Below the pieces are notes generated by a model. The model searched no databases. It had not been told where the DNA came from and saw only the letters and a program-made list of their open reading frames with translations. Position numbers and translations under genes: made by a program. A stretch of DNA of 64,000 nt from a virus (lineage: Duplodnaviria; Heunggongvirae; Uroviricota; Caudoviricetes): the IMG/VR virus record IMGVR_UViG_3300042934_000212; one strand, given 5' to 3'. This document shows, in pieces, positions 61,836 through 64,000 of the stretch (position 1 is the stretch's first letter; every line of letters begins with the position of its first letter).

Positions 61836-62693
61836 ATGAATAAGATGAACCCTTTATCAAAGTACACTAAAGTAGAAGTACTTTATGCTAAATTGGTAAG
61901 TAATGATGTTGTGAAATACCCTGAAGGTGTTTTACTTAATAACACGGTAGAATGTGGTATCTGTGCTCGTTCTGCACGTGATGAATTGATGTTCAATAAC
62001 CCTGATGCACTAATGAATGGTGAAGCAGTAGTTAATGTTATTGAAAACTGTGTTCCTAATATTGGAAACGCACGTAAACTTTTTGTACCAGATGTTGAGT
62101 TACTTCTAGTTGGTATTAAACTAGCAACTAAAGAACGTGAATATCACATCGAAGTTGATTGCCCTAACTGTAAGCATCACGGTGCATTTGAGCGAGATTT
62201 ACAAGTACTACTTGATAGTGCTGATTTACTTGAAGAACAACCAGAACTATTACTTGAAGATGTTGGTGGATTGCTACTAAAATTCCGTCCTCAAACTTGG
62301 GAAGAATATTCAGCATTCGGTCAGAATATGTTCCAACAACAGAAGAAAGCACAAGTCCTAGAGAATCGTGAAGATTTAACTGAAGCAGAGAAAATGGCTG
62401 TTTTTAGTGAGATTTTTGAAGTTATGACTAAACTAAGTTTTGATATGATTGTTTGTAATATTGACAGTATTGAAACTACAGAAGGAATGGTTATTACTGA
62501 GAAGGAGTTTATTGCAGAATGGTTAGGCGAACAGCCAGCATTTGTACTTAAACAAATTCGGGAAAAAGCAGATTGGATTAATAATACTGGTATCTCTCAC
62601 GAGATGGATGTGGGATGTTCTAGTTGTGGTCATGAATGGACTATTGAGAATCTTCAATTTGACCCTAGCAATTTTTTCGCACAAAGCTTCTAA
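61836..62693 (+). CDS. Baseplate hub/tail assembly protein (gp26-like)
   Basis: NPL..Y, A.DE....NPDAL.NG, D...LL..I, CPNC, CSSC and a terminal NFF. Confidence 0.75.
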   Translation: MNKMNPLSKYTKVEVLYAKLVSNDVVKYPEGVLLNNTVECGICARSARDELMFNNPDALMNGEAVVNVIENCVPNIGNARKLFVPDVELLLVGIKLATKEREYHIEVDCPNCKHHGAFERDLQVLLDSADLLEEQPELLLEDVGGLLLKFRPQTWEEYSAFGQNMFQQQKKAQVLENREDLTEAEKMAVFSEIFEVMTKLSFDMIVCNIDSIETTEGMVITEKEFIAEWLGEQPAFVLKQIREKADWINNTGISHEMDVGCSSCGHEWTIENLQFDPSNFFAQSF

Positions 62694-62713: not shown

Positions 62714-62890
62714 ATGCAGGAGATAGCAGATCTAAGACTGAATTCAGAAGACATTAAGAATGGGCTTATGGAAGTGTCTGTATACATAGAAAATACTACG
62801 TATGAAATGCTATTGAATATGCCAGTGACCGATAGAGATTTGCTTGTGAAGCAATACAACAAAAAGGTTAAAAAAGAAAATAAGAGATAA
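62714..62890 (+). CDS. gp51-like small ORF (possibly a -1 frameshift extension of the gp26-like gene)
   Basis: Not in the ORF track. MQEIADLRLNSEDIKNGLMEVSVYIENTTYEMLLNMPVTDRDLLVKQYNKKVKKENKR; the frame is open from 62669. Confidence 0.7.
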   Translation: MQEIADLRLNSEDIKNGLMEVSVYIENTTYEMLLNMPVTDRDLLVKQYNKKVKKENKR

Positions 62891-62892
62891 CT

Positions 62893-62920
62893 AAGACCAG
62901 CCTTTGTGCTGGTTTTTTTT
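62893..62920 (+). terminator. Terminator after the gp26/gp51-like genes
   Basis: ACCAGC-CTTTGT-GCTGGT-TTTTTTT. Confidence 0.8.
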
Positions 62921-62944
62921 GTATCTGAATTATTATAACTCTTT

Positions 62945-63630
62945 AGATTTGCCATACTTCGTATGTCAAAGAATTTTCGTTGTCTGTACATTCACTGCGT
63001 TCTGTACTGAACAACTCAATTCAGTTCTATTTCTTAATTCTCTTATTAATAACTGTTACGTTCAACACTATTATACTGACGAGATTTTGTAGAGGACTTT
63101 ATCATCCCCCCGCAGGGGAATGAAGACAATAAAAAAGTACCAATTAAGGTACTGATATTGTTCTGACGATGATAGTCGTCGGATTTAATTGTATCGTAAA
63201 TTTCTTATTAGAACGAAAGCGGGTTGATCTGTTTCTCTCTATTACGGTCATGTTCAACGGTCGTGGGCTTACCACACTCAGCCTTAAGTCTATACAATCA
63301 AACTTAAAACCTATTCAACTGAAAATGGACGGATTTATATTGTATAAATTCCATCGCAAAAATTAACATCAGTTAAATTCCCTTAGCTTTTTGGTAGGGC
63401 GATTCCTATATATCTATCGAGGATGTTCTGTTAAGCCTAATGAACATCTTTATAGTGCCGTATTGCCGTGATTCGTAGTCTTATGTCGCTTTGTATGACT
63501 GCTAGTACTCTAACGGGTGTCTTCTGCACTTCGAACTGCTTGAACTTCTCATCTATCCTCTACATTTTCGAGTGAATTAGGTTCTATTTTATCAGTACCG
63601 TTCAGTACCGCCAAGCAGGGTTGTTTTACT
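62945..63630. other. Long structured non-coding region (candidate ncRNA or replication origin)
   Basis: No credible ORF; at least eight hairpins and a long-range helix 63088-63096/63556-63564; a promoter points into it. Confidence 0.5.
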
Positions 63631-63638
63631 ACATTCAT

Positions 63639-63667
63639 ATTATACCACAAAAAAGCTTTCTGTTTCA
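63639..63667 (-). promoter_or_regulatory. TGAAAC-N17-TATAAT promoter facing the non-coding region
   Basis: Minus strand reads TGAAACAGAAAGCTTTTTTGTGGTATAAT. Confidence 0.8.
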
Positions 63668-63709
63668 CATTCTTGTAAATACATATACGTAGACTTTTTT
63701 GGGGTACAT

Positions 63710-64000
63710 ATGAAGAAAAGATTAAAAAATCCTAAAGAGGCAGCAGCCTATAGGAATGAACTATTAAAAAAACAAAAAGGTATTGATCCCATTTTAGGTA
63801 TTCCGATTACCAAACCTGTTCTTGATCACCAACACTCAGGCAACCAACATTGTCGTGAAGTACTTCAAAATGAAGTAAACGGTTGGGAAGGTAGAGTAGT
63901 TAACTCATATCGTAGATGCCTTGGACATTTAACGGATAAACCAATACATGAAGTACTAAGAAATCTTGCAGACTATATTGAGCGTAATGGTAATATACCA
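63710..64000 (+). CDS. Recombination endonuclease VII-like protein (runs off the window)
   Basis: Manual translation MKKRLKNPKEAAAYRNELLKKQKGIDPILG...VLDHQH....CREVL..EVNGWEG...LRNLADY; TAAATA at 63676. Confidence 0.8.
   Translation, partial: MKKRLKNPKEAAAYRNELLKKQKGIDPILGIPITKPVLDHQHSGNQHCREVLQNEVNGWEGRVVNSYRRCLGHLTDKPIHEVLRNLADYIERNGNIP

Follow-up and report, generated by a model that had tools for sequence, protein, structure and literature searches.

The largest stretch without genes in an otherwise packed piece of phage DNA raises the question of what it encodes. In the window, i.e., the whole stretch of 64,000 nucleotides that was analyzed, this gap (62992-63709) comprises 718 nt without an ORF of at least 80 aa, the next in the window measuring 401 nt, in agreement with a sequence-only reading of the same DNA. 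That reading had left two options, namely a structured plus-strand RNA with an antisense regulator or a transcription-primed R-loop origin whose displaced strand folds. Comparison with related phages indicates that the gap holds the minus-strand gene of a conserved, pseudoknotted non-coding RNA of approximately 470 nt. The gap is bounded by the baseplate hub gene and a 58-aa ORF on one side and by the endonuclease VII gene on the other:

61836-62693, plus strand: baseplate hub gene (phrog_150)
62714-62890, plus strand: conserved 58-aa ORF (phrog_18291)
62893-62916, both strands: putative bidirectional terminator closing the RNA unit, listed by the terminator search on each strand
63162-63632, minus strand: predicted core of the non-coding RNA, about 470 nt, its start placed from the promoter
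63639-63667, minus strand: phage consensus promoter, with TGAAAC at 63662-63667, 14 nt, and the extended -10 box TGGTATAAT at 63639-63647
63710-64000, plus strand: endonuclease VII gene (phrog_423), cut off by the window end

Copies of the unit in jumbo phages and host islands

Sequence similarity assigns the source of the window to the GAP32/CBB-like (RaK2-like) jumbo phages; its baseplate hub is 85% identical to that of CBB and 82.5% identical to that of GAP32. The nearest record, G001 (355 kb, 100% identical over the element), was used as a stand-in for the whole genome of the window phage. Using blastn, the stretch had matches at 243 places, spread over 62 of 50,697 phage records. Five copies are present in G001 at about 13, 70, 150, 233, and 312 kb, all on the same strand, and five each in GAP32, BF, and Munch; a covariance model counted four copies in 121Q, four in Turkey5, five in G003, and three in RaK2. 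The putative RNA gene of the window belongs to a set of three to five copies, oriented alike, in the related giant phages counted. The copies are spaced more evenly than random, with P values of 0.001-0.002 in four five-copy genomes, which are related and not independent, and of 0.02-0.03 in the four-copy genomes; the three copies of RaK2 are unevenly spaced (P 0.22). Across genera, the copies occupy matching places. The hub-side copy shows the same gene order in all four annotated phages (GAP32, BF, Munch, and 121Q), and the window copy adjoins endonuclease VII and gp46; the other copies in the genome have different neighbors. Between the RNA promoter and endonuclease VII, Munch carries a 318-aa ORF (L003:2221-3177) with repeated Cys/His motifs and a nuclease-like C-terminus, which we take to be of the homing-endonuclease type.

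None of 72,556 plasmids contained the unit when two different copies were used as blastn queries. One full copy each was found in a Buttiauxella genome, on a 12-kb island, and in two of 5,426 E. coli genomes, which share the same 11-kb island. These two islands are unrelated, lie at different sites, and are bounded by direct repeats (att); both encode a tyrosine integrase, a serine resolvase, and defense-type cargo. No Rep, primase, or helicase family was found among the 20 island proteins, six of which are without an informative Pfam family and could include an unknown Rep. No further islands were detected in 400 more genomes of the order (blastn) or in 150 of the family (covariance model), and a loose pattern scan of species genomes gave one true copy among the 120 loci listed, the rest being mostly chance matches. 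A search for a partner protein common to the phage and island loci found none. The E. coli ffs island (L381:2842-13532) has the SRP RNA gene as its integration site and an integrase interrupted by IS3; its cargo comprises a PDC-M45-like DUF488, dual-OB and DUF4326 cluster and the resolvase. The Buttiauxella island (L412:4736-17000) encodes an integrase, cI-like and winged-helix regulators, LprI, a resolvase, nSTAND3, AbiGi, and DUF4238.

Fold and strand of the RNA

A profile search over 381 sources yielded 116 full-length hits; five truncated hits were dropped and 76 distinct copies were kept, which have a mean identity of 64% and correspond to about 54 effective sequences. Base pairs were tested in a fresh alignment of 37 non-redundant copies of these 76 (<86% identical). 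Over 76 base pairs, 95.3% of the cells were paired and 64 pairs showed two-sided change, a result matched by none of 500 shuffles, although these counts lean in favor of the helices, which were derived from the same sequences as tested; many pairs occur as three or four pair types. Pairing fell to 35-39% when the helix partners were slid. Nearly all top signals of mutual information are Watson-Crick pairs. The column pair 63228/63120 is 91% complementary, yet its neighboring columns do not stack. Four helices cross others, forming predicted pseudoknots:

63536-63618, minus strand: pseudoknot 1, 63614-63618 with the loop 63536-63540; in helices 1-2, two-sided change in 5 of 5 pairs
63410-63463, minus strand: pseudoknot 2, short and the weakest, 63461-63463 with 63410-63412; 92.8% paired, two-sided change in 1 of 3 pairs
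63188-63298, minus strand: pseudoknot 3, hairpin loop 63292-63298 with 63188-63194; 97% paired, two-sided change in 7 of 7 pairs
63223-63258, minus strand: pseudoknot 4, 63254-63258 with the loop 63223-63227; 100% paired, two-sided change in 5 of 5 pairs

From 63630 to the end of the tail segment X described below, the copies measure 380-532 nt (median 455), and they differ by large indels of varied length, so that no reading frame is conserved. An optional stem-loop module (63325-63354 in the window; columns 420-455 and 600-630 of alignment A2) is present at either of two RNA sites, at both, or at neither.

Folding energy, for which the sequence-only reading had called, is weak evidence by itself: over the whole stretch, z was -1.9 on the plus strand and -2.7 on the minus strand, and for 63128-63632 it was -1.8 (minus) and -1.6 (plus). 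The case for a structured RNA is therefore made by covariation, which proved strong across the related phages, on the minus-strand transcript (76 distinct copies). In line with the earlier impression that no recognized RNA family is involved, Rfam gave no match at gathering score and nothing better than E 0.5. The Rfam covariance models, among them GOLLD, ROOL, OLE, RNase P, tmRNA, and group I/II introns, had 0 matches in the window and 10 loci, and ARAGORN found no tRNA or tmRNA in the window. No description of the RNA was found in the literature searched. In the supplementary material of PMC10690425 that was searched, neither three 12-nt motifs nor three genome names had a hit; fragments of the RNA could be among the candidates of that work. 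By these comparisons, the four-pseudoknot RNA, which appears to coevolve with its flanking DNA, is an uncatalogued RNA family.

The minus-strand promoter at 63639-63667, already recognized as a phage consensus, has 14 matches in the window, 13 of them on the minus strand, against a chance expectation of 1.8. These matches to TGAAAC-N14-TGnTATAAT, ten exact and four near, extend from 1561 to 63667. The extended -10 box precedes 74 of the 76 copies and the -35 motif 67. Since G-U cells outnumber A-C cells 283 to 31 in the conserved helices, the RNA strand is the minus strand. The claim that several stems work only on the plus strand holds for the window copy, in which 63162-63183, 63420-63450, and 63475-63502 fold better on the plus strand; it fails for the conserved helices of the 76 copies, which have G-U pairs in 283 cells on the minus strand and in 31 on the plus strand (of 5472). 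The hairpin 63162-63183 was also considered on the minus strand, where 50% of its cells paired, compared to 48.7% in shuffles, and was discarded as unconserved.

All eight hairpins listed in the sequence-only reading are able to form, and its sequence elements, TGTAGAGGA at 63088-63096, TCCTCTACA at 63556-63564, and the CAGTACCG repeat, are located as described. The first two had been thought to pair in a long-range helix closing a domain of about 470 nt. Among the copies, 60.9% of its cells are paired, the same as after shuffling (60.9%), and 275 of 500 shuffles were as high; the helix is an accident of the window copy and is not conserved. Its left arm is part of a covarying local hairpin (63572-63570/63560-63558). 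A plus-strand RNA with an antisense regulator made from the promoter at 63639-63667 would agree with the three hairpins that fold better on that strand in the window copy. We give this proposal next to no credence, as covariation and the G-U asymmetry both lie on the minus strand, the long helix is unconserved, and plus-strand promoter-like sites are at chance level (9 in all vs. 16 in shuffles). The structured RNA would rather be the minus-strand transcript of the very promoter that had been assigned to the regulator.

The RNA tail and the DNA downstream of it

Downstream of the last pseudoknot follow, in this order, a tail segment X, an optional terminator, a G-run hairpin, and a DNA site Y, beyond which lie further candidate elements:

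63163-63173, minus strand: X, 11-nt RNA tail, which repeats Y imperfectly in direct orientation; its predicted partner is the template strand at Y
63128-63153, minus strand: intrinsic-terminator-like hairpin and U-run, in some copies only
63102-63123, either DNA strand can fold: G-run hairpin, in which 63105-63110 (five G, then A) is invariant in 76 of 76 copies
63076-63085, minus strand: Y, downstream DNA site in lock-step with X; the X sequence less one base, 88 nt downstream
63020-63075, no strand assigned: A+T-rich stretch past Y, a possible but weak unwinding element
62994-63000, minus strand: C-GCA-G DNA-type mini-hairpin, non-template strand
62953-62965, minus strand: C-GAA-G DNA-type mini-hairpin capping the stem 62948-62970, a predicted single-strand signal

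Among well-filled alignment columns, the identity of X and Y is the strongest non-complementary signal. At position 2, X and Y are identical in all 76 copies (45 T/T and 31 C/C), and on a tree of the RNA core, from which X and Y were left out, this position shows seven changes in X, seven in Y, and seven joint ones. Agreement at other positions is 76/76 (positions 5 and 6), 75/76 (position 3), 67/76 (position 10), and 50/76 (position 4), and in RaK2-type copies further positions are changed in both X and Y. Cognate X and Y share 9.2 of 10 positions, compared to 7.9 when pairs were shuffled (highest value 8.3 in 5000 shuffles), in a test for which 75 of the 76 copies were parsed, a few of them with a misplaced Y. 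In a tree-aware test, all four pairs on starred branches agreed (p 0.125), which are too few pairs for significance. Paralogues inside one genome differ in step at X and Y (BF, Munch, and 121Q), a behavior that is not required by one binding protein, and the fixed differences that separate X from Y have survived in every copy, whereas gene conversion should tend to remove them. A single-sequence view could not reveal a multi-copy family or a tail covarying with downstream DNA.

Inside the RNA, no partner of X was found; the column that covaries most with X is Y, and in 13 of 75 copies examined the best complements of X lie at unrelated places. If the partner of X is the template of Y, every one of the 11 transition differences becomes a wobble; in the opposite arrangement none does, although the independent events are few and 9 of the 11 differences come from one clade. 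Since the RNA tail evolves in step with this DNA, X likely pairs with the template DNA strand at Y.

A terminator-like hairpin precedes Y as a separate element in 32 of the 76 copies, or in 48 when a less strict criterion also admits folds that take in X. The CAGTACCG repeat was considered as an antiterminator, as it pairs with the terminator arm in the window copy; it was rejected because cognate arms matched no better than permuted ones (P 0.62, 24 non-redundant copies), and no conserved antiterminator pairing of the terminator with a 5' hairpin was found in the same 24 copies. Folded as DNA, the G-run hairpin is better on the top strand in 42 copies and on the bottom strand in 32. In the window copy, its template strand has a C-GCA-G loop and could extrude as a cruciform; this loop varies among copies. 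The A+T content reaches 77% in the bin 5-30 nt past Y, compared to 59% in the RNA core, with 64-72% in later bins and a genome that is itself A+T-rich.

Within 150 nt past Y, C-GNA-G mini-hairpins are found on the non-template strand of 69 of the 76 copies and on the other strand of two, with 1.36 per copy vs. 0.10 after shuffling; the RNA core is not enriched. Those with a stem of at least 4 bp occur in 50 of 76 copies, mostly 68-114 nt past Y, and number nine in the whole 64-kb window. In G001, four of the five copies have a C-GNA-G hairpin, and the whole 355-kb record has 37, so they are not unique to these sites. Both host islands have kept Y and the mini-hairpins. According to PMC13037366, C-GNA-G loops have high stability in DNA and far lower stability in RNA, and they are present at ssiA and at the origin of G4. 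The loci studied here resemble ssiA of RSF1010 and the G4 origin (PMC13037366) in carrying such a hairpin on the strand predicted to be single, but only the loop motif is common to them; no primase site was identified in the present loci, where the hairpin is a candidate signal.

These downstream elements bear on two other explanations. GOLLD, ROOL, and OLE are large ornate RNAs, and the RNA of the window is like them a large, pseudoknotted, phage-borne non-coding RNA; unlike them, it has no Rfam match, is tied to downstream cis DNA signals, and has evenly spread paralogues. It could be a trans-acting scaffold or sponge in the style of GOLLD, ROOL, or 6S; X and Y would then be protein-binding sites or serve only the processing of the RNA itself. 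Its size, four pseudoknots, and own promoter and terminator would suit such a role, its presence in host defense islands (PDC-M45, nSTAND3, and AbiGi) fits a decoy, and phage PA5oct expresses ncRNAs, unrelated to that of the window, that make up to 5% of phage reads (PMC7318152). We nevertheless consider this role improbable: Y lies outside the RNA in terminator-bearing copies and still tracks X, the paralogues of one genome differ in step, the downstream DNA-type hairpins are kept even in islands, and Rfam shows no match to GOLLD/ROOL/6S-type families.

Very improbable, in our judgment, is a mobile or self-copying element of the bridge-RNA, retron, or intron type, with X as guide and Y as target or end. 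Several copies per genome, a guide-like segment of 11 nt, the integrative islands, and the presumed homing-type nuclease ORF just upstream of the Munch copy would be in keeping with it, but the positions of the copies correspond across genera, the promoter directly adjoins the fold and leaves no 5' exon, and no Rfam intron matches. A retron msr-msd was rejected, as reverse transcriptase (PF00078) was found in none of three phage genomes and among none of the 20 island proteins, and the DNA hairpins on the RNA-like strand (69/76 vs. 2/76) are on the wrong strand for msDNA. An IS110 bridge RNA was likewise dismissed from the loci only: the neighbors are the hub and endonuclease VII in 4/4 annotated phages, and the islands carry tyrosine and serine recombinases.

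A candidate transcript-primed origin

Comparison of the copies shows the promoter, the fold, its strand, the lock-step of X and Y, the invariant G-run, and the non-template mini-hairpins. On balance, and with only somewhat more confidence than doubt, we favor the interpretation that each RNA copy is a transcript-primed R-loop origin of DNA replication, which would work like ColE1 RNA II without belonging to the ColE1 family. Of the two options raised at the outset, the plus-strand one falls, and a transcription-primed R-loop origin with a folding displaced strand is best supported by the anatomy. GC skew, suggested as a further check, does not switch at the copies and follows the gene strand.

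In the proposed mechanism, the RNA would be made from 63632 leftward and fold during synthesis, leaving X free. X would then hybridize in cis to the template strand of Y, aided by the G-run hairpin, and anchor an R-loop. The RNA end could become the leading-strand primer, either via read-through and RNase H cleavage or via trimming behind X. C-GNA-G hairpins would form on the displaced strand, onto which helicase and primase would be loaded. With several origins at intervals, a 350-kb genome would complete its first round of replication sooner, and the small host islands might employ the RNA unit either as an origin without Rep or as a decoy while a phage infects. An RNase HI gene was found in two of four phages.

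In ColE1, as described in PMC5043065 and PMC4412123, the persistent hybrid of a 550-nt RNA depends on an rG:dC contact, the primer is generated by RNase H, and helicase loading takes place on the non-template strand; what triggers the persistent hybrid is still termed speculative in the former. Compared with ColE1 in these two sources and PMC5935869, the present unit is similar in its folded non-coding RNA, about 500 nt long with the promoter upstream, its G-run, predicted template pairing, predicted single-strand signals on the displaced strand, and lack of a Rep protein. A folded transcript of about 550 nt from an upstream promoter has its probable counterpart in the conserved promoter and fold. 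For the rG/dC stretch, an invariant G5 run is present in 76 of 76 copies, but it lies beyond the optional terminator, and the covarying anchor is X/Y. Unlike ColE1, the unit has no sequence match to 72,556 plasmids and no Rfam match, four covarying pseudoknots, a mixed 11-nt anchor sequence coevolving with its target, an optional terminator before Y, and several copies in a lytic phage chromosome; an antisense RNA I was not seen, the plus-strand promoter-like sites of the window being at chance level.

T4 has at least five origins, two of which work by R-loops (PMC3016281). With T4 oriF/oriG as described there, the present case shares a T4-like phage, several origins (here predicted), a promoter followed by an A+T-rich stretch, and RNase H in some relatives. 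The T4 origins differ in measuring about 100 bp, having no common motif, and needing no particular RNA sequence, according to that paper, whereas every copy of the present unit has kept a conserved 470-nt fold and a covarying target. That R-loop origins of T4 need no structured RNA (PMC3016281) counts against an origin, as do the length of the predicted X/Y hybrid, which is only about 10 bp with a bulge, the true mismatch at position 4 in 25 of 76 copies, and the relative PA5oct, in whose whole record the covariance model found no copy. The terminator between X and Y, which the window copy also has, is awkward for a ColE1-style read-through. In the literature searched, no described replication origin was found for these 350-kb phages.

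Binding of the RNA to Y could instead serve a role other than priming, as spaced anchors for genome entry, organization, segregation, or packaging, or as an RNA-guided nick for recombination-dependent replication. The lock-step of X and Y, the even spacing, and the fixed positions are explained equally well in this way, termination would free a discrete RNA that has X close to its 3' end, and the window copy lies beside endonuclease VII and gp46. By itself, this role leaves the strand-specific DNA hairpins 70-115 nt past Y unexplained; in addition, other copies have other neighbors, and no partner protein is common to the phage and island loci. We regard it as unlikely.

If the preferred reading of a transcript-primed origin is true, a compact, clonable unit would mark all origins of these 350-kb phages, such an origin would be built on an independent RNA fold whose target-pairing segment was revealed by evolution, and small defense islands would have a Rep-less origin. 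Going further, the RNA might represent a new class of RNA-guided replication initiators, whose 3' tail guide opens its own DNA and primes without Rep, possibly with its own catalysis, at spaced jumbo-phage origins, with the Rep-less islands as satellites; this extension is tentative and rather doubtful.

Public RNA runs were matched with the 121Q copy. Of the 24 listed, eight were examined, seven of which consist of contigs that are uninformative on strand, ends, and level. Contigs of wastewater RNA runs span the flanking genes as well as the RNA, and runs X1 and X13 look like DNA. Run X9 gave one contig over 685-895 at a depth of 2.5, and the sole raw-read run had 0 reads on the RNA.

The ncRNA001-004 of PA5oct were considered as expressed homologues and rejected, as no profile or model match was found in the stretches with 001, 002, and 004, nor in the whole record. 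PA5oct ncRNA004 (about 620 nt, expressed, from a related jumbo phage, according to PMC7318152) resembles the window RNA in having same-strand paralogues and a G-run hairpin near the end of one copy. It differs in that its best profile score is 0.6 bits, within the range of shuffles, and the covariance model finds nothing in PA5oct. Two same-strand paralogues of ncRNA004 with invariant blocks are unannotated, one of them in a 900-nt annotation gap, and have no Rfam match. The members of this family are located as follows:

L383:1570-2240: PA5oct ncRNA004 family, at 246.1 kb
L384:1500-1630: PA5oct ncRNA004 family, at 76.0 kb
L385:1500-1630: PA5oct ncRNA004 family, at 12.9 kb

Judged by these comparisons, PA5oct ncRNA004 belongs to a second multi-copy RNA family, distinct from that of the window, in a jumbo phage that has no copy of the latter.
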